From Eledone cirrhosa (taxonomy: Eukaryota): 64,000 nucleotides of DNA. Shown piece after piece: positions 12,209 through 64,000 of this stretch. Both the position numbers and the translations under genes were made by a program. The notes under the pieces were generated by a model. It saw nothing but the letters and a program-made list of their open reading frames with translations, was not told the origin of the DNA and did not search any database. Every line of letters begins with the position of its first letter. Positions within the stretch are counted from its first letter, which is position 1. Where the stretch lies: NCBI GenBank assembly GCA_964016885.1, contig OZ024743.1, forward strand, positions 188,604,001 to 188,668,000. Reading direction: 5' to 3'.

Positions 12209-12489
12209 TGTTGTATGGACTGGGAATCGAACTCACAACCTCATTGTTGTATGGACTGTTAAATTCGTTTTATTCAATTTACACGTGCTCACACATTTGC
12301 ATATGAATCACGTAACCAGGGCAGTCAGTCAGCGTTGGTATTAAAAACTCGGTCACAGACTGCTACTGGCACTTACTTTATGTTATTCTGCTACTGTGAG
12401 GAGGGGCGTTTTGGTTGTTTCGTACAATACACAAATTATTTGATATAACTCGTTGTGTTTTCTCTGCGAGTACCGAGAGGAATACAACA
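12209..12489 (+). repeat. 5' LTR
   Basis: TGTTGTAT...ATACAACA; differs from the 3' LTR by a handful of substitutions and one small indel. Confidence 0.95.
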
Positions 12490-12497
12490 GAGTTTAT

Positions 12498-12515
12498 TGG
12501 CGTTGCCGATAGGAT
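12498..12515 (+). promoter_or_regulatory. Primer-binding site, tRNA-Ser-like
   Basis: TGGCGTTGCCGATAGGAT just after the 5' LTR; resembles the complement of a tRNA-Ser 3' end with mismatches. Confidence 0.6.
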
Positions 12516-12574
12516 TTACGTACATTGCCGATAGGATTTACCTACATTTCCGGGAAATTGTTTATCATAAAAAC

Positions 12575-13635
12575 ATGGCGGAACAACAAACAGCGGAGCT
12601 AATAAAGTTGTTTAGAGAACAGATGGAACAACAAATGCAACAACACAAGAAAGATATGGACACTCTGATAAAACTGTTTGGTGCTCGAGATTCTGAACAA
12701 CGGAGTTTATTGGCGTCACCAGTTGCTTCGACACAAACAGCATTCATCCCACCATTTGCTGCTTTTGATTCAACAACAGAACTATGCCCTGATTACTGGT
12801 CAAGATTCTGCACGTTTGTGGCTGCTAACGCTGTACCCGAGAAACGCATGGCACAAGTGTTCCTGACTAATCAGACGGCTGCTATCTACAAACAACTTGC
12901 AATTCTGGCTGCTCAACAAAATCCGCCTAAGGATATCAACAAGTTGACAATGGACGAAATTGTTGACTTCATGAAAGAACAGTTCGACCCAAAACTTTTC
13001 ATTGTGAGAGAACGTTTCAAGTTCTGGAGTGACATGCAACGGAACCCAGGCGAAACTCTCCAGGAGCTGGCAGCACGTATACGTCAGGATGCAGCTACCT
13101 GTGATTTTCCTTCGATCACAAATCCACAAGATGAAGCTCTATGACAGAGATTTATATTTTCTGTCAATAATGAAGCTGTGTTGAAGGCTATTTTCAAGAT
13201 CAAGGATACAGAACTAGATTTCGCCCGTGCTGTCCAAGTTGCCATCGGGACCTAAGACGCAACAAAGGTTGCCAAGGAAACTGTTTACGGTTCCAAAACC
13301 AAGCAAGTATACAAGGTCCAGCAGAACAAGAACAAGGGTCCTCGAAAGAACCATCAGCAGTCTTATTCCACAGACCAGGAGATGTGCTACCGATGTGGAA
13401 AGGCCCACAAAGCGACATACTGCCCCTTCGAAGAAGCCAAATGTCATTTTTGTGACAAAAAGGGACATTTGCAAGCGGTGTGTAGAAAGAAACAACATCA
13501 GCAACGTAATCATCGCTCACAAAATTACGTGAAAAGAATCACGAAAGCTGGGCTAGTCAAGGCGATCCTTGGTGAAGTTCCCCACGATACTCATAGTTTG
13601 AATGTGCCAATAACAATCCAGAACAGATTTTCACA
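12575..13635 (+). pseudogene. gag: Gypsy gag with tandem zinc knuckles (stops at 13142 and ~13253)
   Basis: MAEQQ...ERFKF...Q.PGETLQELAARIRQDAATCDF; CYRCGKAHKATYC and CHFCDKKGHLQAVC. Confidence 0.85.
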
Positions 13636-16600
13636 ATGGAATTGGACACAGCTACTACAGGCAATTTTGTTTCCTTGTCAGTTTGGAAACAATTAGGAAA
13701 ACCGAAGCTGCAAGATGTCAAACATCGGTTTGAATCTGCCAGCAAGCACGACCTGCCCGTTCTGGGAACTTTCATGGGCCAAACCAAGGATCCAAAGACT
13801 GGTAAACGGAATTCAATACCCTACATCGTCACCAAGAACCCTGATCTTAATTTGCTGGGACGAAACGCTATCCAGACTCTGGGAATTTCCGTGGACAATG
13901 CTCTAGGATTGAAAAGCATAGACAGCCAGGCCAAGAGTGGGGGTGCAGAAGTGATGCAACCAAAGACCTCAAATGAGCTTTATATTTCCATGCAACGAGA
14001 TTGTCACATGTGTGATGAATTCCCAGATCTCTTCAAGCAAGAATTGGGATGTCTTAATGACTTCGAACTGGAAGTGAAGTTCAAGTCGGACGAGACACTG
14101 GTCTTTCACAAGGCACGCCCGGTCCCGTTTGCTCTTCGTGATGACCTGTCCAAAGGTTACGAAGAAGGCATCGCCAAAGGAATCTGGAAGCCAGTACAGT
14201 TCAACGAATACGGAACGCCAGTGGTACCGATTCGTAAAGCACATACTTCAGGCAACCTGAAGCCCAAACTACGGATTTGTGGTGACTACTCTGTGGGAAT
14301 TAATGACCAACTTGCAGATCATCGTCATCCAATGCCACTCCCAGAGGAACTGATGCAGAAACTCGGAGGTGGATTCGGATACACAAAGATTGATCTTGCT
14401 GATGCCTATAATCAGATCAAGTTGGCTCCAGAAAGTCAACGCAGGCTTGCACTCAGCACTCACCGTGGGGTGCTCCTGCAGGAACGACTCCCTTTCGGAA
14501 TCAGGTCAGCACCTGGTTACTTTCGGGAGATCATGGAAAACCTGACTCAAGATCTACCTGGTGTGGCCGTCTTCCAGGACGACATGTTCGTCAGTGGGAA
14601 AGATGCAAACGATCACCTGAACAACCTAAAGTGTCTGCTCACACGTCTGTGCGACAAAGGACTCAGATGTCACCGTGACAAGTGCCAGTTTGCACTACCC
14701 AGTGTGGAATACCTTGGACACACCTTGTCGGCTGAAAGGATCGCGAAGGGATCCAAGGTCGAAGCAGTTTTAAAGATGCCACCTGCAACGAACGTCTCAA
14801 ACTTGAAGTCTTTCCTGGGTTCAGTTCAGTTCTATGGAAAGTTTATCCCAAACCTGGCCAGCATGGCAGAGCCACTCTATTGCCCTACGAAAAAAAACAA
14901 CTACTTGGAAGTGGGGAGATGAAGAACAGTCAGCTTTCGATCAGTCGAAAAATGTGCTTTCATCGGATCAAGTTCTGATACACTTCGATCCAAACAAAAC
15001 TTTGGGACTGGCTTGCGACGCGTCAAACGTTGGTATTGGAGCAGTCCTGTTTCATCGCTATCCTGATGAAAGCGAGCGCCCAATATCCAATGTGTCCAAG
15101 ACTCTTACTTCTGCACAGCGTAACTACGGCCAAATTCAAAAGGAAGCCCTGGCCATCATATTTGGCTTTGCAGAAGTTCTATCAGTATCTGTACGGACAT
15201 CAGTTTATACTCGTAACTGACCACAAGCCACTGACATCACTGTTCAGTCCGAGGAAAGGGTCGCCACTTCTCGCTGCTAACCGACTAGCACGGTGGGCCC
15301 TGTGGCTGAACCAGTTTGACTACACCATCGAATATCGGAAAACAGCGGATCATGGCAATGCAGATGCCCTCAGTCGCTTGCCATTTGGTAATGACATCGA
15401 CTTTGACAGGAAGGAAAATGGTGAAGACATGGACATGGTGTGCTCCATCAAAGCTCTCAGTCTTCAAGTCCAGCCTATCGATGCTAACGTCCTCCGTCAA
15501 GAGTCAGGGAAATATCCAGTGATATCTACAGTGATACGCTACGTCCGTGAAGGCTGGCCACCAAAGAATACTGAGATCAATGACGAAGTCAATAAGTTCC
15601 GGAAGTTATCGGATTCACTCAGTATCTGCCACGGATGCCTTATCCATGGATCGAGAGTTGTGATTCCACATAGCTTACAGCCAAAGATCCTCAATCTTCT
15701 GCATCTCGGACACTTTGGCACGGAGCGCATGAAACAATTGGCAAGAACTGCTGTTTATTGGCCTGGTGTCGATGCTGCTATAGACAAAACCAGTCGACAA
15801 TGTGATTCGTGTGGTGAACATCAAAACCAGCCATCCAAGTCTCCAGTTCACCCATGGATGTTACCTGAAAAGCCGTGGAGCCGCTTACACCTGGACCACG
15901 CAATAAATTTCATGGGCAGTAATTGGTTAGTGATCACGGATGCTTATTCCAAGTATCCATGCATTCATCTTACGTCATCCACGTCCTCCAGAGCCACTTT
16001 AGATCTGCTTGAAGAAGATTTTGCGCACTTCGGATTTCCTCACACGCTAGTCACCGATAACGCACCAACTTTTATTTCTGAGGAGTTCCAGAGCTGGTGC
16101 AAAGAACGTGGGATCACGCACCTGACAGGGCCACGTTACCACCCAGCTACTAACGGAGCAGCGGAACGTTTGGTACAGACAAGCTCTGAAGAAGACTTCT
16201 CTTCCGCCGAAGCGAGCACTTCAAGAGTTCTTGATGCAGTACCGGAGAACACCGACATCCAGTGGATTCTCTCCGAGTGAACTTTTGAATCACCGGCAGA
16301 TACGGACAAGGATTGATTCTCTGCTGCCCTCGCCAGCACACATCGCTCAAGGCAAGCAGTCTAAGGAAGCATATAAGTCTCAGATGACTCCGGAATCGGC
16401 AGGTGTCGCTAAGGTTACCAGGCAGTACAAGGCTGGAGATCCTGTATATGCACTGTACTACGGACCTCGCCGAGACAAAGATCCCCAATGGGTACCAGCA
16501 ATCATTGAGAAGTCATTGGGTACTCGCTGCTTCAACGTTAAGGTCATACCTCATGGCCCGGTGTGGAGATGACACTGGGAACAGCTGCAACCGCGGTACA

Positions 16601-18979: not shown

Positions 18980-20408
18980 TGAAGACATGGATAGTTCAGT
19001 TTTAAATCAACATATGAGAAGTAGTTTTAGATTGATGTGTTATTTTGGGAAAAATATTTTATTTAGAGGGGGGGGTGGAAAGGATGAAAAAGAGGAGGAG
19101 ATGAGAGTAAAAAGTGGAGAGGGAGGAGTATAATGAGGAAGGATGAGATAGGAGGAGAGATGGGTGATAGAGAGAGAGAGAGATAGCTTTTATAACTGAG
19201 AAAGATATATTGTTTTACATAGAGAGGTTGAAAACCGTTGGAAGATAATGAATAAATTAAAAGAATTTGAAAATTAACGAAGAGAAAAATAATGTAAAGT
19301 TAAGGTTTGTATATTGAAGGATTTGATAATATGTGTGATGAAAAAAGAAAATGTTAATATGTATTGAGAATAATGTTTAAGGGTTTAATAATATGTGCGA
19401 TGTTAAGAAGATGTTGATATGTATTATTAAAAGAAACAACAGGTTATTTAAGTAAGGAAATATTGTGAGATGAATGAGTTAGATGAAAGGGAGAAAAGAA
19501 TAATGAATTGAGGACGAATAATCTAACGTCAAAAAAATGTATATGCTTACGAAGGATTTTCACAAGGTGAATAGAGTAAGAATGTATTGTATTATGTAAT
19601 ATTTGATTCTATGTTAGGCAAGAGTGAGAAAAGGTACAGATTAGGGGTTAGACATTAAAAGAAGAAGAGAAGAATGAGTAACAAGTATTATAGTATGTAT
19701 AATAACCTTTGAAATAAGGTAGAAAGATGGGTATATTTTTAAAAGAAGTGTATATATATATATATGTGCCTTTGAGAAAAAGATTCTAAATTGATAAAGA
19801 ATTGAATATTAGCTGTATACTTTGTGAAATGTTTTATGGAATTTATGCAAGCAGATAGAAAACAAGTCAGTGCGATTAGAAATAATGGTAAATTTTTCAT
19901 TTAGGCAGAGATTGCAAATTTTGGATAGAGAACTGTTCAAGTATGGAGACGCAGAAGAAACCTTCTTCCAAAAGATGCTATATTTAATATTTTTGTCTTT
20001 CAAGGACCATATGAGTTCTGAGAGAGCCGTGTTGGTTCTTTTAAGTTTGTATTTAAAAGACGAATGATGGTTATAAAGACGAGCTTTAAAAGAGGTGGAA
20101 GTGGAGCCAAAATAGGTGAAGGAATTGGTGTCAGTTATAACTTTACATTCGTAAATCAAGTTTTTATCAAGACAATGGTTGTTGAGAGGACATTTATTTT
20201 TAATAGGGCAATTGCAATTGCGATTAGAGAGATTATTAATGAGTGACCTAGTGTTATCTATAGAAGGAATTGGATTGGAGAAGTTATTTGCGATAGGAAT
20301 AATAGTTTCTTGATTTAGAATGGGATTAAGAACATTTAGCGAAGTTGTGTTTGACGTTGTATTTGGGTTTGTAGAAATTAGCCTAGGGTTTACAATGACG
20401 TCGGGAGT

Positions 20409-21899
20409 AAAACCATCCTAGAGTTCAACAACGAATATTGGACCAGAGCCGATACCTCTAACAACTTCGACATCACAATGGGAGCATCCGATTCATCCCA
20501 ATTGACAGATTTAATTGGTATCTTTATTTTGAACTCTTTGAGTCGGAAAATTCCTCAACTTCGCGGTGGAATTTATCGTGACGATGGATTCTTTACTATC
20601 TTAAATTGTAATATAGTTAACCTTAATATTATTAAGAACAATATATGTAATCTCTTTAACCAACATAACCTAAAAATTGAATTTGATAACAGCATCAAAC
20701 TAGCTAATTTCTTGGATGTATCTCTTAATCTTGACACTGGCCTATATTACCCTTACCATAAAAATAATGAGAACCTAAATTATGTTTACTTTAAATCTAA
20801 CCATCCTACTAATATCAAGAATGCTATAGTTAGTAATATTGGAAAAAGAATATCTAACCTATCTTCTAATAAAAACATCTTTGATGCTAACACCAATTAC
20901 TATAATAACGCGCTTTCTAAAGCCGGCTATCCTGATAAAATTAAATATAGTAAAGAAACAAATTCTAGAAGAAATTACAGTAGAATAATTAATCATGATC
21001 ATTCCAATAACTTTAATAAAAGACCTAGATACAAAAACATAATCTGGTATAATGCTCCTTTCTCCATCTCTATTAATAACAATATTCCTAAATTATTCTT
21101 TAGTGCCTTAAATAAATGCTTCCCTCCCTCACATATCTATAGTAAAATATTTAACAAACACACTATAACATTTTCCTATTCTACATCCTCCAACATTTCC
21201 AACATTATCTCTAAACACAACAATAAAATACTAAATACTAAATCTCTTCCTTCCAACACTGAATATCATAATAATAGTACTCCCGACGTCATTGTAAACC
21301 CTAGGCTAATTTCTACAAACCCAAATACAACGTCAAACACAACTTCGCTAAATGTTCTTAATCCCATTCTAAATCAAGAAACTATTATTCCTATCGCAAA
21401 TAACTTCTCCAATCCAATTCCTTCTATAGATAACACTAGATCACTCATTAATAATCTCTCTAATCGCAATTGCAATTGCCCTATTAAAAATAAATGTCCT
21501 CTCAACAACCATTGTCTTGATAAAAACTTGATTTACGAATGTAAAGTTATAACTGACACCAATTCCTTCACCTATTTTGGCTCCACTTCCACCTCTTTTA
21601 AAGCTCGTCTTTATAACCATCATTCGTCTTTTAAATACAAACTTAAAAGAACCAACACGGCTCTCTCAGAACTCATATGGTCCTTGAAAGACAAAAATAT
21701 TAAATATAGCATCTTTTGGAAGAAGGTTTCTTCTGCGTCTCCATACTTGAACAGTTCTCTATCCAAAATTTGCAATCTCTGCCTAAATGAAAAATTTACC
21801 ATTATTTCTAATTTAGATTCTATAATAAATAGACGCACTGACTTGTTTTCTATCTGCTTGCATAAATTCCATAAAACATTTCACAAAGTATACAGCTAA
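20409..21899 (+). CDS. PLE reverse transcriptase (C-terminal half) plus GIY-YIG endonuclease, 5'-truncated open frame
   Basis: Frame open from the inversion junction (KTILEFNN...FDITMGASDSSQLTDLIG...GIYRDDG...FLDVSL...SNHP...WYNAPF...CNCPIKNKCPL..C...LIYECKV...YFGST...FKARLYNH...CNLCLNEK...CLH). Confidence 0.88.
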   Translation, partial: KTILEFNNEYWTRADTSNNFDITMGASDSSQLTDLIGIFILNSLSRKIPQLRGGIYRDDGFFTILNCNIVNLNIIKNNICNLFNQHNLKIEFDNSIKLANFLDVSLNLDTGLYYPYHKNNENLNYVYFKSNHPTNIKNAIVSNIGKRISNLSSNKNIFDANTNYYNNALSKAGYPDKIKYSKETNSRRNYSRIINHDHSNNFNKRPRYKNIIWYNAPFSISINNNIPKLFFSALNKCFPPSHIYSKIFNKHTITFSYSTSSNISNIISKHNNKILNTKSLPSNTEYHNNSTPDVIVNPRLISTNPNTTSNTTSLNVLNPILNQETIIPIANNFSNPIPSIDNTRSLINNLSNRNCNCPIKNKCPLNNHCLDKNLIYECKVITDTNSFTYFGSTSTSFKARLYNHHSSFKYKLKRTNTALSELIWSLKDKNIKYSIFWKKVSSASPYLNSSLSKICNLCLNEKFTIISNLDSIINRRTDLFSICLHKFHKTFHKVYS

Positions 21900-23597: not shown

Positions 23598-23916
23598 GGA
23601 GGCACATGGCTTAGTGGTTAGAGCATTGGCCTTGCAATCGAAAGGTTGTGAGTTCAATTCTCAGACCGTGTGATGTGTTGTTTCCTTGAGCAAGACACTT
23701 TATTTCTCATTGCTCCAGTTTACTCAGGTCCATATCATTCGACTGCAAAGTGGTCGTGGATGTGCCACGGCAAAAAACCACCCAGCACTCACTGTAAATA
23801 AGGTTGGTGTTAGGAAGCGCATCGAGCTGTAGAAATCAAGCCAGAATCAGTTCCCATCCCACCCTTGCAAGCAGGGAAAAAGCGGACGTAAAATGAAATG
23901 ATGATTATGATGATGA
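23598..23916 (+). mobile_element. tRNA-derived SINE family 1
   Basis: A box TGGCTTAGTGG, B box GAGTTCAATTC, CCTTGAGCAAGACACTT core, RTE-like tail. Confidence 0.85.
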
Positions 23917-27590: not shown

Positions 27591-27654
27591 ATTTTATTAT
27601 ATATATTTCAAGGGCGACCAAGGTAAATTATGGTGCGCTTTCATCAGATAAAAT
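27591..27654 (-). ncRNA. Minimal type I hammerhead ribozyme
   Basis: ATTTTAT-CTGATGA-AAGCGCACC...GGTCGCCCTT-GAAA-TATATA-TA-ATAAAAT. Confidence 0.8.
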
Positions 27655-30381: not shown

Positions 30382-32298
30382 AGAAGGTTATAGTTCACTT
30401 GAATCATTGTGTAATGAGGTATATTGTATATGTATAATAAAGCCAAAACAATGCAGGTATGGACATAGAATAAAGAATGCAAATTCAAAAGATATTGTTG
30501 ACAATTAGTCTTTTACCTTAGATTTATTTAAATGTCATTAATTTTCGAGATAATATCTCTTCTTCGGAGGGAAGTAAAGCGGTTAAACCAGTGTTCTAAA
30601 TAGCTTGCCAAGTCATGCTGACAGGAAATGGTATAGAGTATCTGTTCTACCTCTAATGTCAAAGAGTTAAGGTTAGGTGGATAAAGAGTAGTCTCCCTTT
30701 AAATGGGTTTTTTTTGTACATGCCTGTTTAAGTGTGTGGGAGAATGCATGAAGGTGTAAGTATGTGAATGTGTGTGTGTGAGTGTGAGAAGATATGTCTA
30801 TACGTGAATGTGGGGGATAGATGTTATCTCGTGTTAGAACTAGTCTTTGTGTGTGTGTGTATGTGTGTGTGTGAGAGAGAATAAGTGGAGGTGTAAGCAT
30901 GTGTGTGTGTGTGTGTGTGTGCGTGCGTGTGTGTGTGCGTGGGGTGTGTGTGGGGTGTGTGTGTAAATATGGGGCTAGAAGCTCTATCAAGTTATAAATT
31001 GCTTGTTGAGTTCTAGTCTATTATTGATTGGTGGTTGTGTTTTGTCTATAATTAGTGCTTCCTTAATTCTAAGATTGCCGAGGTTTCTTTCCTTAGTTTC
31101 TATCCTAACTGTTATGGTTTTGTCGGTGTTTTTGCATTTAACTAGGTGTTTCTTAAATGAGGAAGCGTTAGTATTGAGGTGTTCTTTTATTCTTATGTGG
31201 AGTGGTCTGGAGGTGCTACCTACGTAGAAGTTGCTGCATTTGTCACACTCTAGTCTGTATACGACGTAAGCCTGGTGGCATAGGTCTGTGTCGTTGATGG
31301 GGCAGTTGGCTAGCCTGCAGCAGTTGTCATGTCTAGTGGAGTGTCTTTTGGTTAGCTGTCCGCGTAGAGAAGGACCTGTGTGGGCCAGTTGGATATCTAG
31401 TCCCCCTCGTCTGATAGCTCTGCGGATGGCTGTTGTTGTTTCGTCACTGAAGTGTGGGAGCTTCAGGAAGCAAGTGTTAGTGCCTCGGGTGTGGTGTCCT
31501 CTGTTCTTTCTGGCACGGTTTGTGGTGGATGTCGTGTATCCGTTAAGTTTGAGTACTTCCAGGAAATGTGTGGTGTGTGTGTCTTGGTCTTAGCGTCGGT
31601 GCATTTGTTCCGGATACGTGTTACTTCGTTCCTTATGTATCCGAACTTAGCGCCGGCTGGGAGGGCCGATCTGAAATGTACGAACAGGTCCCTGCTGGCG
31701 GCTTTTTTATAGAAGCAGGTGTCGGTGTTGCCTTCCTCTGTTACCCTGAGTTGGAAGTCCAGTAGGGATAGGGATCCGCGGTCATCGGGGTGTTCCATGC
31801 TGAACCTTATACTGGCGTCCATGCTGGAGAATGTTGTGTATATTTTAACAATATATATATATACAAAGACCAGTTCTAACACGAGATAACATCTATCCCC
31901 CACATTTACGTATAGACATATCTTCTCACACTCACACACACACACTCACATACTAACACCTTCATGCATTCTCCCACACACTTAAACAGGCATGTACAAA
32001 AAAAAACCCTTTTAAAGGGAGACTACTCTTTATCCACCTAATCTTAACTCATTGACATTAGAGATAGATACTCATTGACATTAGAGATAGATACTCTATA
32101 CCATTTCCTGTCAGCAAGCTATTTAGAACACTGGTTTAACAGCTTTACTTCCCTCCGAAGAAGAGATATTATCTTGAAAATTAAGGACATTTAAATAAAT
32201 CTAAGGTAAAAGACTAATTGTCAACAATATCTTTTGCATTTGCATTCTTTATTCTATGTCCATACCTGCATTGTTTGGGCTTTATTATACATATACAA
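30379..32298 (-). mobile_element. Penelope-like element (Naiad-like), 5'-truncated with inverted pLTR
   Basis: IR 30424-30851/31862-32298; coding remnant between the arms; CCGAAGA-variant hammerheads near 30535-30572 (-) and 32150-32187 (+). Confidence 0.85.
30987..31838 (-). pseudogene. PLE RT thumb plus GIY-YIG endonuclease (one frameshift)
   Basis: IRFSMEHPDDRGSLSLLDF...FYKK...SALP; then LKLPHF...CRLANCPIND..LC...VVYRLECDKCSNFYVGSTSRPLHIRIKEH...KKH...LRIKEALII..QPPINNR. The endonuclease part is missing from the ORF track. Confidence 0.85.
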
Positions 32299-34953: not shown

Positions 34954-35418
34954 TTAGGTTTGTTGGTTCACCACTGGATAGAATTGGTCATTCCGTATGG
35001 TCAATCTCGATGTAATATTATGGAGAGTACTCAACGTAATGCAGCTCACCCGTCTTCGTTTGTGAAGTTGGTGGTGCGAGTACGAAGTTAAGTATTATAA
35101 TAAAATAACAGGAGGCTGGACTTGTGTAAATCCTTGAAAGGTTTAATATACTATGATCATTTCAATGACCGGGTTCCGGTGATATCATCAGGTATTCGAA
35201 ATATAACAAAGGAATATAACAGACAAAATTCATGGGGCTGAAAATCATAAACAAGAGGATGACCGACCATCTACCATCTTCTGCCTTAGTCGGTCGCCCT
35301 CAAGTCAAATACCTGATTATATCACCGGATTCATACGGAACCCGGTCATTGAAATGATCATAGTATAATAAACCTTTCAAGGATTTACACAAGTCCAGCC
35401 TCCTGTTATTTTATTATA
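34932..35418. mobile_element. Non-coding hammerhead element family C (fold-back copy)
   Basis: IR 35095-35196/35308-35417; same family as 56910-57533. Confidence 0.7.
35148..35195 (-). ncRNA. Minimal type I hammerhead ribozyme
   Basis: ATAC-CTGATGA-TATC-ACCGG-AAC-CCGGT-CATT-GAAA-TGATCA-TA-GTAT; the plus partner 35309-35366 has CTGATTA. Confidence 0.78.
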
Positions 35419-45462: not shown

Positions 45463-48030
45463 TTATTATTATTATTGTTCTTTGAGTCTCAGTCATTGAT
45501 GTTATTTAACTGGAAAGTTTGTTGAAATGAATATCAAGCCGCTACCTGCCGCCTCAGATATTCAGGACGGATCGGAGGGTTCTTGCTGTTGCCAGCAAGC
45601 ATGCCTTTTGAAGTGTTCCAAAAAGCGGGGCTGAACTAATCTTCTTTAACCATCCTTGGAAACGCCTTGAGATAGTACCTAGAACGCCTATGACAATCGG
45701 GACGACCTTGATTTCAATCCTTTTTAACTCCCACTTTAAGTCCTGGTATCGGTTAATTTTCTCCCTCTCCTTTTCTTGCACTCTCGTGTCGAATGGGCAG
45801 GCTACATCTACAATCAGGCACAATCTTTTTTCCTTGTCCAAAACCACAGAGGTCAGGCCTATTGTGTTCTAATTTCTTGTTCGTCTATATCCTAAAATCA
45901 CATAGCATCTTCACCTGATCGTTTTCTATCACCGACTCTGGCTTATGCTCATACCACTTCTCAGAATGTGGTAAATTGTTTACTTTGCATAGATGCCAGT
46001 GGATCACCCTGCCTATCATATCATGTCTCCAGCCCTTATAGTGAGTCTGGGCTAGGTGTTTACACTCGGATACAATGTGAGCCATAGTCTCCTCTCTCGC
46101 TTCACAGATCCTACACAGTAAACTAGCCTCCTCCTTGTAAATATGATGTTTCACCCACTTCGTTCTGAGGGCTTGCTCTTGCGCAGCCATTAGCATTCCT
46201 TCTGTAGCTTTTTTAAGGTCTCCTCATTTCAACCAGTTCCATGTCTGTGGATCTCTAAATTCTGTTTTCCTAAAAGTAGTATGAAGGGATTTTTCATGAA
46301 GGTTGCTCCTCCTCCTTGTTGTTATTTCCTCCTTGGTCATCCCTGGTCTATTGTCTTCTCCTTCAGTACAATTTTGAGCATTGGCTCCCTACTGTCAGTC
46401 ACATATTTGTGCAGGTTGTTTTTCTCCATCTGCACACAGTCCTCTATGCTGATAAAACCTCTTCCACCTTCAGATCTCTTTAAGTAGAGTCTATCGACAT
46501 CACTCCTCTTGTGGAACATGTTGTGGGTAGGCAATAGCTTCCTAGTCTTCCTATCCATTTCGTTTTGTTCAGCAACATTCCATTTCAGAATCCTAATAAT
46601 GGACACACCTCGGGAATTCACTGCACTTATGACATTCCTACTATTTAGATGTGATTTTAATACGCTCCTTACTCTCCTTATGTACTCAGGTCTTATCAAT
46701 TCCTTCATTTTTTGTTTTTGATGTCATCTGTCTCCAGAACACCTAAATATTTGAATCCCTCCTCAGTGTCAATTTCCTTTATCATCTCACCTGTTGGTAC
46801 CTGGATTCCATTGCTTCTGTTCAATTTACTCCTCTTCATCACTAGGACTCCACACTTACTAATACCAAAATGCATACATATATCATTGCTGAAAATACGG
46901 ACAGTGTCAACAAATACATCCAACTCCTTCTCACTCTTCCCAAAGAGTTTAAGATCGTCCATGAGGAGGAGGTGATTGATGGTAATCTCTCCCTTTCCCG
47001 ACTTGTATCCTGCTCTCACTTTTCACAATACAATGGTCAGGGGTATCAGAGCAAGGACAAACAGCAGAGGGGATAAACTATCTCCCCGGAAGATACCTCT
47101 CTTGATCTTCACGCCTCCCAAGTATTCTCCACCCGATGTCAACTGTTTCCCAGGACTTCATACTTTTGCTCAACAACTGTCTGATGTTATCTGCCACGTT
47201 GAAGATCTCTAGGCTTTTGGTTATCCAAGAATGAGGTACCATGTTGAATGCCTTTTTGTAATCTATCCATCCGATGGCAAGACCAGTTTGCCTCCTCTTG
47301 CAATTCCTCATTACCATCTTATCAATAAGTAACTAGTCTTTTGTACCATGGTACTTCTTTTGGCATCCTTTCTGTTCGTCCAGTAGCAAGTTGTTTATGT
47401 GGAGGTGATGGTAGATTTCCTCAGACACATTGCTTGTTAACAGTTTCCACATTATGGACAGACGTGATAGGTCTATAGTTGGTAACATCATTACCCTTCA
47501 TTTGGTCTTTCATTACCAGAACTGTGGTATTTTTTGTCAACCACTCAGGTACCTCACCCGACACCAAGCAGTCATTGAACATGGTTGTCAGTTTCGGGTG
47601 GAGGGATGTTATGTTTTAATCCAATACCCTTGCACGCCATCTGGGCCTGGTGATTTCCAGTTGGTTAGTTTTTTGGCCTGCGCTTTAAGAGTTTCATCTG
47701 TGATACTCAAATCAGGTTGTTGATGTGCTTGTTCACTAATCTCCTTTTGTACTGCCTGACTATTATGTTCAACATCCTGCTCCCATATTCCTCTCCAGAA
47801 TGTCTTAGTCTGTTCCGCCTCAGGGATCACGTCGTTGCCTCTTTCTTTCCCTTCAAGCTGTCCAAACAACATCTTCTGGTTGTTGTCAAACATGCGGTTC
47901 TGTCTATACTGACTGACTCTGTTCTCATACCCCCTAATCTTTACAGTTTTTGCTACAATGCGTTGCTTCAGTTCCTCTATCATAATATTTAGCTTTTTTC
48001 CCCTAGTTTTGTATTTTATTTCCAATCTAT
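45463..48030 (-). mobile_element. R4/Dong-clade non-LTR retrotransposon (RT plus restriction-like endonuclease), decayed
   Basis: NWKSPGPDGVQGYWIK, WIDYKKAF, HLLLMDDLKLF, RLYLKRSEGGRG, AAQEQAL, CRIC..ETMAHIVSEC, VDVACP..EK..RY.DL..VPIVIG.LG; (TAA)n tail. Confidence 0.9.
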
Positions 48031-48578
48031 CTTTAGTGTCTATGTTTTATATTGTTATTTCTATATATTGATTATTCGAAATATATATTGTCATTACTAT
48101 ATATTGATTATATTGACCGAAGTACTTAACTGGTACATAATTTATCAACCCTAGAAAAATGAAAGGCGAAGTTGCCCATGGCTAGATTTCAACTCAGCAT
48201 GTTGAAAGTTGTAACCAAATGCTGCAAAGCCTTTTGTCCAACACTTTACGATTGCTGCAAATCTACTCACCTTGAATGATAGTAATATTATTAATCCACC
48301 TAATTTATAGGACAAGAAAATGGATCAGAAATTGCTACCAAGTACCAGCAGGAAAAAATGTAGCCTCTAGACTGAAATATCATTCCCAATAGATGATAAT
48401 CTAATTCAAATATATCACTAAAATTTGAAGTCTTACATGACAGCAAATAGCAATACTGGGCACTACACACATTTTAATAAAATAGAAAATATGTAAAGAA
48501 AACACTATATATACGCAAAGGCATATAGTGTTGTACTCAGTTGTATAATGGAAGAATGCAATACAAATATGATAGCTG

Positions 48579-54620: not shown

Positions 54621-56095
54621 TATATTTTTTTATCTTGCCCTTTGAAACGATTGTAAAACAACGAATTAATTAACTACTAACCCCTATCTTATTTATTTTC
54701 TTTGTTCAACATTATATATCTGACTCTGTTGTTTTTGAATACTCAATAATAAATAATAATATATCATTTTTTTACAAAAATTACTTTTTGCTTAGATGAG
54801 ATAATGGGATATTCATATCAACATTGCATTAAGATATAAGATTAGAAATCTTACCTTAATTGAGTAGAGCAATAATAATGATTTCTAGTATAAGCACAAG
54901 GCCAGTAATTTGGGGGGAAGAGAAAGTCGATTAAATACGACCTCAGTATGTTACTGGTACTTTATTTTATGAACACCATAAGGATGAAAGACAAAGTTAA
55001 CCTCAGCGGGATTTGAACTCAGACTGTAAAGGACCGTAACTCTATGCTGTAAAGTATGGCGTCTGACTCTCTACCGATACGGCCAATCCACCACCATTAG
55101 AGTAGAGCAATAATAATAACTCCTAGCACTCTCTCTTCCTCTCGTCTCTTCAATCTTTCTAATTTCTCATTCTTTCTTCTGATGAAGGACTAGCGTCCAA
55201 AACGTTGAGGCACTATTCCTGCTATTTCAAGTGTTAAACTAATATATTCCTTCCATATAAGTACACACACACAGAGACAGAGACACACATACACAGACAG
55301 ACAGACAGACAGACACACACATATATATATATATATATAATATTTATATTCTTTTCCACAAAACTTTAGAAAACTTTCCAGATGGTGAGAGGCAATCGTA
55401 GTTGGGATTGAGCTTGAATTTTTGATTGGCTGATGTCTATAGGGAAAATGTCGGCATTAAAGTAGTTCAAGGTAACAACAATTCTAGGTTGGAACACTGG
55501 AGTAGTCAAAGATTTGGGTGTGAATGTGAGGACCAATGGAATCAGATAGGCTTTTGTGAACATATAGATTGTTAGTCCAGAGGTGTCAATGCAACTTAGT
55601 TTTTGTTTAGAACAAAGTCAAAACTGATTGAACAGACATATGTAAATGTCTTCCTGCTATAACTATTCTATTTTTATTTGAACAGTGTATTCAATACTAT
55701 AATTTTCAATATGTCCATTTTAGTAAAAAGATTGTCAAGTATAATTTGAAGATTTAGCTGGTATATCTTGCATATGGATATGGATATGATGTATATATAT
55801 ATATAAACAAATAACGAAACGAAATTAAATTTCGTTTCGTTTGTAACTCACTTTTGTATGACTGACGCTTAAACAATTAAGTTAAAAATGTACATCTACA
55901 TATGCATACTGAAATACTAGTATGTATATGAATACACACACGTATACATATGTAGATGTACCAAGTCTTTCACTGGTTACTTTACTGTGAGTATCCAGCT
56001 ATTCTGTATGTAAACACACAGACAAACCGGTTTTTAGAGTCATACTGGTTTTTGAGGAAACACCTTTCCTCTATTCTCCAGAAAGCCAGACAAGG

Positions 56096-56140
56096 AATAT
56101 TGAACTAGTTTCGTTGTTGTTACAACTCATCAGCAATATT
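56096..56140 (-). ncRNA. Minimal type I hammerhead ribozyme
   Basis: Exact reverse complement of 56624-56668. Confidence 0.9.
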
Positions 56141-56623
56141 TACCTATCTACCGGCCTTTCTGGAGAATCGTAAAAGCACATATCGTTATATGCTTTTTCT
56201 ATGAAAATTAGTAGTGGGCAGACTAATTTGCATAGAGTGTGAGTACGTACCGGTTCAACGGAGACGATAAAAACAAATAACGAAACGAAATTAAATTTCG
56301 TTTCGTTTGTAACTCACTTTTGTATGACTAACGCTGGTACATCTACATATGTATACGTGTGTGTATTCATATGCATACTAGTATTTCAGTATGCATATGT
56401 AGATGTACATTTTTAACTTAATTGTTTAAGCGTCAGTCATACAAAAGTGAGTTACAAACGAAACGAAATTTAATTTCGTTTCGTTATTTGTTTTTATCGT
56501 CTCCGTTGAACCGGTACGTACTCACACTCTATGCAAATTAGTCTGCCCACTACTAATTTTCATAGAAAAAGCATATAACGATATGTGCTTTTACAATTCT
56601 CCAGAAAGGCCGGTAGATAGGTA

Positions 56624-56668
56624 AATATTGCTGATGAGTTGTAACAACAACGAAACTAGTTCAATATT
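56624..56668 (+). ncRNA. Minimal type I hammerhead ribozyme
   Basis: AATATTG-CTGATGA-GTTGT-AACA-ACAAC-GAAA-CTAG-TT-CAATATT; all helices perfect; predicted cleavage after 56661. Confidence 0.9.
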
Positions 56669-56909
56669 CCTTGTCTGGCTTTCTGAAGAATAGAGGAAAG
56701 GTGTTTCCTCAAAAACCAGTATGACTCTAAAAACCGGTTTGTCTGTGTGTTTACATACAGAATAGCTGGATACTCACAGTAAAGTAACCAGTGAAAGACT
56801 TGGTACATCTACATATGTATACGTGTGTGTATTCATATGCATACTAGTATTTCAGTATGCATATGTAGATGTACATTTTTAACTTAATTGTTTATATATA
56901 TATATATAT

Positions 56910-57533
56910 AAATGAAATAACAGGAGGCTGGACTGGTGTAAATCCTTGAAAGGTTTATTATACTATGATCATTTCAATGACCGGGTTCCATATGAATCTG
57001 GTGATATCATCAGGTATTGGAATATAACAAAGGAATATGTAAAAAGCCATGGGTCCGAAAAACCATGGGTCCGAGAAACCAGAGACAGAGAGAGCGGCTG
57101 ACCAACTAGCTTCACAGCCAGCCGCCCTCAAAGTGTTGGCAACCGAAAACTACCAGTGAATATCTGGTAAGGGGGCGCAGGCCTATCATGTACTACCATC
57201 ACTCAGTCAAAGAAGAGGGGGAAGAAAGAAAGAAAGGAAGAAAGAAGTGTAGAGTAAGGGTTAAACTACATTCATGTTAGAAAATGCGGCGAAAAAAATA
57301 CTACCCAAAGAATCTATAGTGGGTGTCTGTATGGTCTAATGTGTGAACCGAGGATTGGAACGCTAAACTTATGTTGCGAGTTATAGGATGAAATAAATTA
57401 AATTAAAAATATTAATTTGCAAAATGGTAAATTGAAAAATAGAGGTAGCGAGATTTATTTATTTAACGAACTTACAGAGAGTGTCTTATGGAATTACCAG
57501 TTCTATCCAGTGGTGAACCAACAAACCTTAAGA
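56910..57533 (-). mobile_element. Non-coding hammerhead element family C
   Basis: Hammerhead 56960-57017 (-) as at 35148-35195; 57490-57530 matches 34934-34995; (TA)n flanks. Confidence 0.7.
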
Positions 57534-58105: not shown

Positions 58106-58724
58106 ATATAAAATATGTAAAAGCTAAACTGAAATAACAACACTATCGGTACAGTATATGGAAGGAATACATTAGGTTAACACTTGAAATAGCAGGAAGG
58201 GGGACCTAATGTTTCGGACGCTAGTTCTTCATCAGAAGAAAAATGAGAAATTAGAAAGATTGAAGGGACGGACCGGGTGGAATTGGAAAAAATGTTTTTA
58301 GAGAAAAATAACAGGTCCATTCATGTTTGCCATCTCTTAGAAAACTGTTGATGTTGGCGTTTTGTGTATGATATATATATATATATATGATTTTCACTTC
58401 AGTTTTGTTATTACTTAGTTCATCAAAGATTTTTATCTTGTCTTTTTTTAGCAAAAGAAGAGTATCAGAGGAAAACAAAGTCATTGATAAGATCACAGAA
58501 TATGTGATGAAAGATCTTTGGTGATATAACTAATAACTGATAGTACAGCTGAAATGAAAATCAAACAGAACATGCTTTTTTATTGTCAAAATTTGCAACA
58601 AGACTATCTACAAATATAACAATATCTGTTTCAACAAACAATCTTAAATCAAGAATCATACAAAATAAATATGTACATACACAACACACACACTCATATA
58701 TATATATATATATATATAATATAT

Positions 58725-60215: not shown

Positions 60216-60550
60216 GAGGCACATGGCTTAGTGGTTAGAGCATTTGCCTTGCAATCGAAAGGTTGTGAGTTCAATTCTCAGACCGGGTGATGTGTTGTTT
60301 CCTTGAGCAAGACACTTTATTTCACATTGCTCCAGTTTACTAAGCTGTAGAAATGAGATAATAGGGACTGAGGTCCATATCATTCCACTGCAAAGTGGTC
60401 GTGTAGTTGCCACGGCAAAAAAAGCACCCAGCACTCACTGTAAATGAGGTTGGTGTTAGGAAGGGCATCCAGCTGTAGAAATCAAGCCAGAATCAGTTCC
60501 CGTCCCACCCTTGCAAGCAGGGAAAAAGCGGACGTAAAATGAAATGATGA
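60216..60550 (+). mobile_element. tRNA-derived SINE family 1, full length
   Basis: A and B boxes, central core, and a 3' tail matching the RTE end at 61867-61925. Confidence 0.88.
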
Positions 60551-61866: not shown

Positions 61867-64000
61867 TCATCACAATCATCATCATTTTACGTCCGCTTTT
61901 CCCTGCTTGCAAGGGTGGGACGGGTCTTATTCAGCACAGCATCTCTCCATTCATCACGGTCCTTCGTCATCTCCACCGTGAGCTTCATTTATCTGAGGTC
62001 TGTTCTCACCACCTCCGCCCATGTTTTTCGTGGTCTACCTCTAACACGTCTTCCTTCAACTGGCATTTCCTGGCACTTCTTCACCCATCGGTTATCCTCC
62101 ATGCGCATCACATGTCCATACCACCTAAGTCTCCTCTCCCGTACACTACATTCTATCCCTCTCAGACACAGTTTCTCTCTCAACACATTTATGCTGGGTC
62201 GTTCATGCACATTTACACTGCACATCCAATGGAGCATGCTTGCCTCATTTCTCTCCAGCCGTTGCATATCCTCTGCAGTTGCTGCCCATATCTCACTACC
62301 ACGCAGCATCGCGCTCCTCACACAAGCATCATACAACCGGCCTTTCGTACGCAGGAAGAAACCCTTCTTAGTCAGCAGAGGAAGCAGCTCCCTAAACTTC
62401 TTCCAACCCGTCCTTATTCTAGATACTATGGCCTTGGAACACCCTCCTCCCATACTAATCTGATCTCCTAGGTACCGGAAGCTATCGGCCACTTCTATAG
62501 TGCCGTCCTGCATTTGAAAAATGTGTCTATCAATGCGACTTCTAGTCTAATTTCCCTGTACATCTACTGCATACATATTTCTCCCTACCTGTTAGTTTGC
62601 CTGCTATCCCGCTACATCTCTTGTGTACCCAGGATCTGCATTGTGTGCATTTTATAGAATTTATGCCAGTTCCTTTTCTGCATATCGAACATGGCCATTT
62701 CCCTGACGGAATCAGGGTTTTGTCCTCTTTTCTACTCATCAACACTTGCTTCCAACTGCTGTTTCCATAGCCAGAATTTATTCTCTAGCTCCCCTACTGA
62801 TTCTGCTATGAGAACCATAGAACAGCATAGAGAAGTTCCCATGGACAGCCAGTCTTAAACTCCTCTGTTATGGCTTGGAGGATTATAATGAACAAGAGCG
62901 GGCTGAGGACTGAACCCTGATGTACTCCTACTTGTATCTGGAATTCCTCACTAAACTCCATTCCTACCCTGACTTTACTGAGAGTACCTCTGTACAAAGT
63001 TTGCACTGTCCTCACAAGCCATTCCTCAACACGTAGCTTCCTTAGGGACCACCAGATGACAGATTGGGGTACCCTATCAAAGGCCTTCTCTAGGTCAACA
63101 AAGGCTAAGTATAGTGGCTTATTTTTCTCTAAGAACCTCTCTTGCAATTGTCTCACCAAGAAGAGGGCCTCTGTTGTACTCTTCTCAGGCACAAAACCAA
63201 ACTGCATCTCATCTAGTTTGACCCTTTCTCTAATTAGTTGTGCTAATATCCTTTCTGTCACTTTCATAACCTGATCCATCAGTTTTATACCCCTATAATT
63301 GCTCCTCTCCAGAGCATCCCCTTTACCTTTGTAGCAATTTATGAGAACACTGCTGCACCAGTCTTTGGGTATGACACCACCATATATAGCCTGATTGATG
63401 ATGCGTGCAACCAGTTTAGTGCCTACGTCCACTGATGCCTTCAGCATCTCAGCAACTATTCCCAATGGTCCAGCAGCCTTAGCATTTTTCATTTTCTTAA
63501 TCGCCTCTTAGACCCTATATTCGTCAATCTCAATAGCTGGTCCCTCTGTCAGATCTACTAAGGGTAATTTCTCTCTCTCCCATTCGTTCTCCACATTCAT
63601 CAGTCTCTCATATTGACATTTCCAGGCCTCCTTTTTCTGATCATTTGTGACACTAAGTACACCGGCATCATCCCGGACACATTTATCTCCAACAACATCC
63701 TGATTTGCATTGACACACTGCCTTGCAATGTGGAACACCGCACGCCTCTGATCTTCCCGTCATAGAACATTGGCAAACCTCTACTCTCCGCCTCCCTGCG
63801 TGCTTAGTACACCTGACGTCTAGCTTCTCTCTTAGTGGCTGTATATTCTTCCCTACTGCCACCCTTTTTCCAAGCCTTCCATGCTAGTATTTTGTCTCTA
63901 ATGGCCTTATCTACTGTGCTGTTCCACCACCAGGTCACTCGCTGTCTGGTTGCAGCTCTGCTCCAGCCACAAGTTTCATCAGTAGCCTGCAACATGTTGT
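61867..64000 (-). mobile_element. RTE-clade LINE (family 1), frameshifted, continues beyond window
   Basis: TWWWN, KAAGP, YKGKGD..NYRGI, QFGF, AFVDLEKAFDRVP, GVHQGSVLSPLLF, Cys-rich insert, FRYLG, RRLRWYGHV, RGRPRKTW; (ATG)n tail. Confidence 0.92.

Follow-up and report, generated by a model that had tools for sequence, protein, structure and literature searches.

A stretch of 64,000 nt from the genome of Eledone cirrhosa (GCA_964016885.1, contig OZ024743.1, positions 188,604,001 to 188,668,000), called the window here, contains two back-to-back copies of one small hammerhead-bearing unit. This locus raises the question of what kind of element leaves such a pair, which enzyme moved it, and what template was copied. 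A preliminary description, made from the letters of the window, read the pair as a young, viroid-like retrozyme, with circularly permuted arms that were reverse transcribed round a circular or multimeric RNA, and suggested the enzymes of Penelope-like elements (PLEs) as the mover. Having followed the unit through the genome, we consider it probable that this is a protein-free retrozyme inserted by PLE twin priming on one RNA monomer, which would form a closed or nicked circle and be read repeatedly.

The window locus, its family and its ribozyme

Both arms derive from a single 466-nt unit and had been placed exactly, at 531 and 560 nt (Table 1). The plus arm shows no mismatch to the reference unit, and its second pass reaches position 94. 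The minus arm departs from the unit at 56330, 56169, 56078 and 55925, four positions where about four had been anticipated. The unit was said to have no ORF, and the longest ATG frame on a trimer indeed encodes 19 aa on the plus strand and 50 aa on the minus strand; its GC content is 34.8%. The (TA)n repeat in which the arms were thought to be embedded adjoins both outer ends. By the end rule of the family, described below, the window copy is an ordinary A+B pair. Because it has one ribozyme per arm, on opposite strands, it cannot release a 466-nt monomer or circle and is a dead end.

Table 1. Features of the window locus, with unit positions numbered from window position 56335, and one further locus discussed in the text.
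Feature	Position	Strand	Remarks
Minus arm	55805..56335	-	531 nt, 1.14 units, unit position 95 round to 159; ends at site B
Plus arm	56335..56894	+	560 nt, 1.20 units, unit position 1 round to 94; ends at site A
3' end of minus arm	55805	-	
3' end of plus arm	56894	+	
Full 466-nt unit, reference for unit positions	56335..56800	+	94-nt direct repeat at spacing 466
Head-to-head junction of both 5' ends	56334..56336		1-nt overlap at 56335
Left (TA)n target	55792..55804		target duplication unreadable within microsatellite
Right (TA)n target	56895..56910		doubles as the 3' tail of an older minus-strand repeat that bears a hammerhead
Long hairpin upstream of site A	56337..56408	+	repeat at 56803-56874
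Start site A	56884..56894	+	unit positions 84-96; U-rich, just 3' of long hairpin; 97/212 outer ends
Hairpin between sites A and B	56457..56485	+	within the ~70-nt tail
Start site B	56490..56499	+	unit positions 156-165; U-rich, largely unpaired; directly 3' of second hairpin; 106/212 outer ends; used by window minus arm at 55805
Type I hammerhead, plus arm	56613..56684	+	Rfam Hammerhead_HH9, 38.6 bits, E 6e-8
Hammerhead core CUGAUGA	56631-56637	+	
Predicted cut, plus arm	56661/56662	+	after GUU; unit 327/328
Hammerhead, minus arm	56080..56151	-	predicted cut 56103/56102
Locus L208	G000:C3:245517700-245522100		A arm carries A>G cluster

The exact 29-nt ribozyme core occurs 5,217 times in the 3.0-Gb genome, and with about 28 loci among the first 100 core matches we estimate roughly 1,500 loci. 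We mapped 129 of them, a non-random set made up of the best BLAST scores, the first places on one chromosome and loci picked by lineage patterns, from which eight duplicates had been dropped and in which four overlapping pairs had been merged. Units measure 466-468 nt, and arrays reach 38 units. Across 233 passes at 63 loci, divergence was 0.20% within arms, 0.18% between arms and 2.76% between loci. The family shows what is expected of non-LTR retrozymes, namely tandem non-coding hammerhead units, GC below 50%, target duplications longer than 4 bp and no linked ORF. These observations support a young, ORF-less hammerhead retrozyme that has moved through RNA, as first proposed. Sequence of the stretch also occurs in sequencing runs of 16 studies, but we do not claim horizontal transfer: in three other organisms (X4, X6, X8), coverage is confined to several high-copy repeats of this genome, at trace depth and without its exons, and trace contamination is likelier than transfer. 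Contigs rich in T>C changes in run X5, absent from the deep run X1, were likewise not accepted as evidence of expression, two host exons being without coverage and the library type unrecorded.

Each arm carries one hammerhead, as the preliminary description held, but its wording of a perfect minimal ribozyme does not fit: helix III consists of a single base pair, capped by a CUAG loop that is palindromic, the cleavage triplet is GUU, and helix I is extended. The covariance score lies below the Rfam gathering score of 52, and a scan at gathering thresholds missed the hammerhead; miRNA-family matches at relaxed E-values were discarded as hairpin noise. In the predicted fold of the monomer, helix III has a pairing probability of 0.0, and helices I and II range from 0.66 to 0.99; the hammerhead is predicted to work only as a pair (dimer). 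Axolotl HHR_Amex1 and newt satellite 2 share the 1-pair helix III with its palindromic tetraloop, and cut as dimers (PMC7229834; PMC6155905). The core letters are invariant in 88 loci, while in a 423-nt sister family, of which three copies were aligned, helices I and II persist although their letters differ, and the palindrome is unchanged. This invariance and covariation point to a ribozyme under selection. The long hairpin upstream of site A is also present in the sister family with different letters.

Folded as a circle, the unit is predicted to be far more stable (-149.9 kcal/mol) than 60 dinucleotide shuffles (-91.4 +/- 5.9 kcal/mol), and the hairpins singled out in the preliminary description appear in this fold. 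It is branched, not rod-like, with 66% of its bases paired against 61% in the shuffles. The epithet viroid-like thus suits the fold but not a replicon, as the hammerhead is found on one polarity only and nothing points to RNA-to-RNA replication.

Probable repeated copying of the template, and A-to-G changes

Arms cross the cut site in 133 of 155 cases from biased samples, and in 31 of 44 from a sample chosen by 3' pattern only, and the longest reach 29 units. Because they run through the cut site for up to 29 rounds, a circular or multimeric template is needed. This part of the origin first proposed stands, whereas free permutation of the arms, which had been taken as its sign, does not (see below). 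Eleven two-armed arrays of at least six units show cross-arm differences at 1 of 5,115 columns, compared to 74 of 15,561 in 38 short loci (p 2e-8). With almost no differences between their arms, the longest arrays appear to be the youngest and to be born long, although assembly polishing could flatten long arrays. Periodic variants also reveal that blocks of 2, 3 and 8 units were duplicated locally in the DNA (L083, L087, L192/193), so some array length was gained after insertion.

Both arms of an insertion carry one haplotype. At L214, eight A>G changes relative to the base lineage are found in both full units, and the six that we tracked recur in every pass of both arms; the pattern is found nowhere else in the assembly (4/13 matches, all at L214), which favours one monomer copied repeatedly as the probable template. 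Other variants that had seemed private to a locus were abandoned as proof of a single template, since they proved to mark small lineages genome-wide. Because these variants are not private, sibling RNAs of a single dominant source might also explain why the arms are identical. In two arrays the haplotype changes partway: one chimera switches between positions 327 and 397 and the other near 437-459; one of the two switches away from the cut site.

A further locus, L208, records a change of template at the cut. In the 5'-most 329 nt of its A arm, 43 of 104 A are replaced by G, with no other change, and none of the 223 A in the 700 nt downstream is altered. The base upstream of an edited A is T in 22 cases, A in 20, C in 1 and G in none, as compared to T 19, A 9, C 18 and G 15 for unedited A (p 3e-9), such that 42 of the 43 changed positions are preceded by T or A. 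Depletion of G upstream of the edited A has been reported for ADAR, and octopus counts among the animals with the most hyper-editing (PMC5625713). The 43 changes are likely ADAR edits of RNA written into DNA; being A>G on the sense strand, they would have been made on the RNA template and not on the cDNA. The last change lies 7 nt before the predicted cut of the ribozyme, and a stretch reaching from there to 5 nt beyond the cut would escape editing at every A with a probability of about 0.02. The edits are confined to one arm, and the two arms are separated by a third sequence. Further upstream, 600 nt belong to a third repeat family; they run in the same sense, lack the usual TA end of that family and may reflect a second template jump or a later insertion. 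In our reading, the enzyme left one RNA for another, hyper-edited one, which it entered at the 3' end made by the ribozyme, or else copied a ligated mixed multimer; a template change at the cut is not expected from a sealed monomer circle.

A search of the ribozyme loop returned no hyper-edited copy besides L208. Among 56 inherited minor variants, A>G (21) exceeded T>C (6; p 0.003), G>A (3) and C>T (5), with the reservation that 5 of the 21 A>G variants had served to choose loci. Their neighbour bias was not significant (16/21 with T or A upstream, p 0.45). An apparent A>G excess in single-pass variants was set aside, as it came mostly from L208 and was gone without seven mixed loci (19 vs 14, p 0.39). 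We found no report of ADAR-edited retro-copies in genomes in the literature searched, supplements excluded. The nearest published analogue is the APOBEC editing of LTR retroelements, which shares with L208 the clustered, strand-specific deamination frozen in a retro-copy; the screen described there looked for G>A and came out empty for invertebrates (PMC4866542), while the change at L208 is A>G on the sense strand.

The alternative that survives best is PLE twin priming on a linear multimer that is left uncut after transcription of a long array; length would then come only from local DNA duplication, and the hammerhead would play a minor part. It can draw on the block duplications, on the clustering of long arrays in few lineages (71 units in 7 loci; 288 units), as long parents predict, and on the ribozyme itself, since a GUU triplet combined with a helix III of 1 bp probably cuts poorly. 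Eight of nine frog dimers did not cut (bioRxiv 10.64898/2026.07.22.740005), and for PAc, a PLE from the anole (lizard), the ribozyme is described as dispensable in vitro, with mutants inserting normally, unprocessed RNA as the main substrate and a multi-copy linear template favoured (PMC11167929). Still, we regard this explanation as unlikely for the Eledone family. Lineage-defining changes are fixed in all units of both arms, which would need passage through a single unit followed by re-multimerisation, and the near-zero cross-arm differences in long arrays would need both arms to expand almost simultaneously. No ordered unit-level pattern common to the loci of one lineage was seen, in a comparison of low power. 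The L214 pattern occurs in every pass with no parent in the assembly, and the edit boundary of L208 falls at the cut. Repeated reading of one processed monomer accommodates these observations more readily, and it is the reading that we carry forward.

Two fixed start sites and a probable PLE enzyme

Mapping of copy ends did not bear out the free permutation of the preliminary description. Inner (5') ends (n=216) are uniform round the unit (Rayleigh p 0.50), and their pile-up at the cut site is not significant (7 vs 3.7 expected, p 0.08). Outer (3') ends are not arbitrary: at the 129 loci, 203 of 212 lie at site A or site B, about 70 nt apart, and 9 elsewhere. The two-armed head-to-head layout is present in 80 of the 129 loci. 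Among 81 pairs, 70 are A+B, 2 are A+A, none is B+B and 9 have another end (p 1e-18). One different site per arm is thus the rule in 70 of 72 classifiable pairs, here quantified for retrozyme insertions, and six further loci with a tiny second arm obey it. Neither two-armed retrozyme insertions nor such a rule in a retrozyme was reported in the literature that we searched, supplements excluded. The apparent circular permutation of the arms is therefore the product of two fixed starts plus random stops. The same mapping excludes a MITE, a possibility raised at the outset, since the 5' ends are not fixed and arm lengths vary from under 0.2 to 29 units.

Among the first 93 loci mapped, TA-type repeats adjoin 141 of the 155 outer ends, target duplications measure 12-13 bp where readable, and junction overlaps of 1-9 nt are found in 36 of 59 pairs. 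At two loci with non-TA targets (L182 and L197), short pairing to the element was seen by eye at both ends.

This footprint can be compared to that of the PLEs of the same genome. Young PLEs are present with open RT and GIY-YIG frames and a CX4CX2C linker, which by the description in PMC8557442 would be of Neptune or Nematis type; the nearest named relatives of the genome's PLE proteins are mostly in bivalve records. In one family with open RT and GIY-YIG frames, the 3' ends fall at two sites separated by 65 nt, and in 6 of 6 pairs each arm uses a different one. The sister retrozyme (66% identical to the unit over 218 nt; 3,973 candidates) follows the end rule in 9 of 13 two-armed loci, and no locus has both ends at the same site. 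Published PLE insertions show inverted arms, lie in microsatellite targets and have a tail at one end (PMC8557442, PMC3846280). For PAc in vitro, two internal start sites define the tail, both strands are cut and extended, and a dimer is predicted (PMC11167929). Because intact PLEs and the sister family obey the same end rule, matching the PAc start sites, the mobilising enzyme is very likely that of a PLE. The suggestion first made on general grounds thus gains a footprint of two ends, inverted arm and TA target, which matches that of the genome's PLEs.

Self-priming, in which the cDNA end of the first arm would snap back and copy that arm after a single RNA priming event, has been proposed for PLE inverted repeats (PMC3846280). 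It would account for the same haplotype in both arms and for the 1-9 nt overlaps. In this family we judge it quite improbable, as neither arm bounds the other. The A arm is the longer in 21 of 51 pairs, and very young loci vary, with arms about equal at L087/88, B longer at L073 and A longer at L099. Both outer ends pair to the target at L182, L197 and L129, with a duplication of about 12 bp, and at L208 the arms are split by a third sequence and edited on one side only. Extension of both DNA strands in vitro (PMC11167929) also argues for two priming events.

We give still less credence to the possibility that the unit is the pLTR of an autonomous PLE and the copies its 5'-truncated stumps. 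Their insertion geometry is identical to that of the genome's PLE stumps, and frog retrozymes are described as related to pLTRs (bioRxiv 10.64898/2026.07.22.740005). However, no sequence common to the unit and a PLE was found in 50 sampled loci, of 10,597 GIY-YIG candidates, and no sampled copy is attached to a PLE ORF as its pLTR, the attachment that had been named in advance as fatal to the retrozyme reading. Arms continue upstream into more units and never into a shared ORF end, arrays of 20-38 units hold no coding sequence, 34 loci without a detected second arm share no upstream sequence at the junction, and where PLE protein matches lie near the unit, at 12 loci, none is connected in sense with its 5' end. 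A PLE-like ORF at L112, near a 66% match, was rejected as the parent, the match being a sister retrozyme inserted in that PLE's TA tail; and L063, considered as a retrozyme-PLE chimera, is equally explained by insertion beside an old stump. That the window inversion is an assembly artefact is scarcely credible, for although PLE inversions trouble short-read assemblies (PMC8557442), the 80 two-armed loci have different junctions, a strict end rule and in several cases target duplications, and the window arms differ at four positions and end at different sites.

For PLE twin priming on one monomer, the following course of events seems to us most consistent with the data. Tandem arrays would be transcribed, and the pair-dependent hammerhead would cut the transcripts to 466-nt monomers, the ends of which would be held by helix I and probably ligated. 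A PLE protein, likely a dimer, would nick both strands of a (TA)n target about 12 nt apart; the footprint of this step is seen in the insertions, the enzyme being putative. One 3' end would start at A and the other at B, aided by 4-5 nt of U-rich pairing. To judge by the arrays, each reverse transcriptase would then cross the cut site, travel from part of a round up to 29 rounds and stop at random, and the two cDNA ends would join by microhomology to give a head-to-head pair with a target duplication of about 12 bp. Arrays would thus be born long, and later shrink or duplicate locally. Edits on the template, bearing the signature of ADAR as the presumed enzyme, would be copied to DNA and supply many lineage-defining changes.

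A bolder version of this account we can offer only tentatively. It holds that a PLE dimer grips one ribozyme-processed monomer at two fixed sites, extends both target ends and rolls round it up to about 30 times, making multi-kilobase palindromic satellites in one step; that fold-back transcripts feed ADAR, whose edits would be the main heritable source of new lineages; and that L208 would be genomic proof of hammerhead cutting in vivo and of an enzyme crossing ribozyme-made ends.

Relation to known systems

Retrozymes are known in molluscs, and their mobilisation by PLEs has been proposed (PMC7229834; bioRxiv 10.64898/2026.07.22.740005); for cephalopods, we found no report in the literature searched, supplements excluded. 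With the metazoan non-LTR retrozymes described in PMC7229834 the family shares an ORF-less tandem unit, a single type I hammerhead, GC below 50%, thousands of copies, a stable circular fold, target duplications longer than 4 bp and PLEs in the same genome. At 466 nt, its unit compares to 170-400 nt in that account and to 51-972 bp in another (bioRxiv 10.64898/2026.07.22.740005). Retrozymes are described there as tandem arrays, whereas this family is two-armed and head to head, with two fixed ends. In these papers PLEs were proposed from co-occurrence and likeness to pLTRs, and here from the insertion footprint. Circles and cleavage have been shown for published retrozymes, while the present family is known from its sequence.

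Endonuclease-bearing PLEs, as published, have in common with the family head-to-head arms, random 5' truncation, an optional tail from two internal starts, an AT-rich or (TA)n target with an 8-13 bp duplication, and a hammerhead in the repeat. The retrozyme differs in having neither an ORF nor sequence common to the 50 sampled PLE loci. Its starts pair with the target, whereas PAc is described as starting at a non-homologous site (PMC11167929). Its tail of about 70 nt is longer than the 30-40 bp published for PLEs and close to the 65 nt of the genome's own PLE family, and its arms run to 29 units, unlike those of published PLE insertions.

Two other systems invite comparison. In LINE-1 twin priming, both nicked ends prime on one RNA, one at the poly(A) end and the other at a variable internal site, and the resulting inverted arm is joined by microhomology. 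In the retrozyme, each arm starts at a fixed internal site, and the two arms can both be longer than one unit. Hammerhead viroids are likewise small, highly paired, non-coding and hammerhead-bearing, with a circular form that is predicted here; the retrozyme, by contrast, is genome-encoded, with a ribozyme on one polarity and a branched fold, its inherited changes favour A>G when read on the sense strand, and it gives no sign of an antisense replication step.

The movement of animal retrozymes as circles by means of PLEs has been proposed since 2020 on the basis of co-occurrence, and the head-to-head, one-tailed insertion of PLEs has in general lacked a settled mechanism. The family offers roughly 1,500 natural insertions of a 466-nt substrate, which give a direct view of the start sites, of the one-site-per-arm rule, of a stagger of about 12 nt and of repeated copying, and it defines a small in vitro test for both retrozyme movement and PLE insertion. 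It also points to a route by which RNA editing may enter a germline genome, and to a one-step origin of long perfect palindromes, which would give rise to double-stranded RNA in an animal group of extreme editing.

Hammerhead-bearing and other repeats around the retrozyme pair

The window holds several further repeats (see table below), some of which lie close to the 466-nt retrozyme pair. The right-hand target of this pair is the (TA)n tail of the nearer copy of an older hammerhead-bearing repeat. Two decayed hammerhead-like repeat ends, ~87% alike and inverted, flank the pair. A separate small head-to-head pair is made up of two of the hammerhead-like motifs of other families, at 27647 and 27739. 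Head-to-head arrangement was also observed in one of the Penelope-like (PLE-like) coding fragments, a 505-aa frame accompanied by an inverted partial copy. This frame was labeled by eye and had no Pfam match. The other PLE-like fragment is GIY-YIG-like.

Repeats and related families in the window and at other loci of the Eledone cirrhosa genome (L-numbers; coordinates after them are locus-internal)
Feature	Location	Strand	Remarks
Older hammerhead-bearing repeat	window 56911-57060	-	
Second copy of this repeat	window 35101-35230	-	
Decayed hammerhead-like repeat ends (two)	window 55141-55262; 58151-58272	+; -	
Hammerhead-like motifs, other repeat families	window 212; 18971; 22762; 27647; 27739; 36427	+; -; +; -; +; -	
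Broken LTR-retroelement frames, LINE-like reverse-transcriptase fragments	window 12449-16572; 46337-48046; 61989-63507	+; -; -	by-eye labels
tRNA-like heads, repeated SINE-type element	window 23604-23672; 60224-60281		
PLE-like coding fragments	window 19809-21899; 30987-31945		
Sister retrozyme family	L112:1890-2455; L152-L181; L055; L111	- (L112)	423-nt unit; older
Young PLE family	L101, L102, L106, L110, L112		938-aa open frame
Third young tandem family	L208:1976-2576, L223, L224		unit ~530-555 nt; G-rich block, TA at end

Composite loci and sequencing runs

In the arrays at L188 and L194, the 5'-most unit comes from a different haplotype (switch intervals 327-397 and 437-459), reflecting either template switching or recombination. 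L205 contains two inverted copies of one insertion. Their junctions are identical and ~4 kb separates them; they probably represent a segmental inverted duplication. Close to another 466-nt-family copy, at L063:2475-2815 (-), are two exon-like segments with splice signals, the second of which we take to resemble a Ras-association domain.

One arm (946-1975) of the copy at L208 (G000:C3:245517700-245522100) carries 43 A>G changes within 329 nt, in ADAR context, and the cluster stops 7 nt short of the predicted ribozyme cut. Between the two retrozyme arms of this locus sits a copy of the third tandem family (473 candidates), in which inspection by eye revealed no canonical hammerhead.

Sequencing run X5, whose library type is not on record, yielded T>C-rich contigs of the 466-nt unit. 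Several high-copy E. cirrhosa repeats appeared at trace depth in runs from other organisms (X4, X6, and X8), with exons absent, likely due to cross-contamination.

Penelope-like elements and a sister retrozyme family

Insertions of the young PLE family are head-to-head, with two 3' ends spaced 65 nt apart; read by eye, the family has a variant hammerhead-like motif with a palindromic helix III. Three short pairs, in the flanks of L065, L089, and L100, have a 5' end common to within 3 nt, possibly a start or cut hot spot.

The sister retrozyme family (3,973 candidates) is 66% identical to the 466-nt unit across 218 nt. It has a GUA triplet and shares its palindromic helix III with the 466-nt family. 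Both families also follow the two-end rule, whereby the outer (3') ends of the arms lie at two fixed sites, one per arm.
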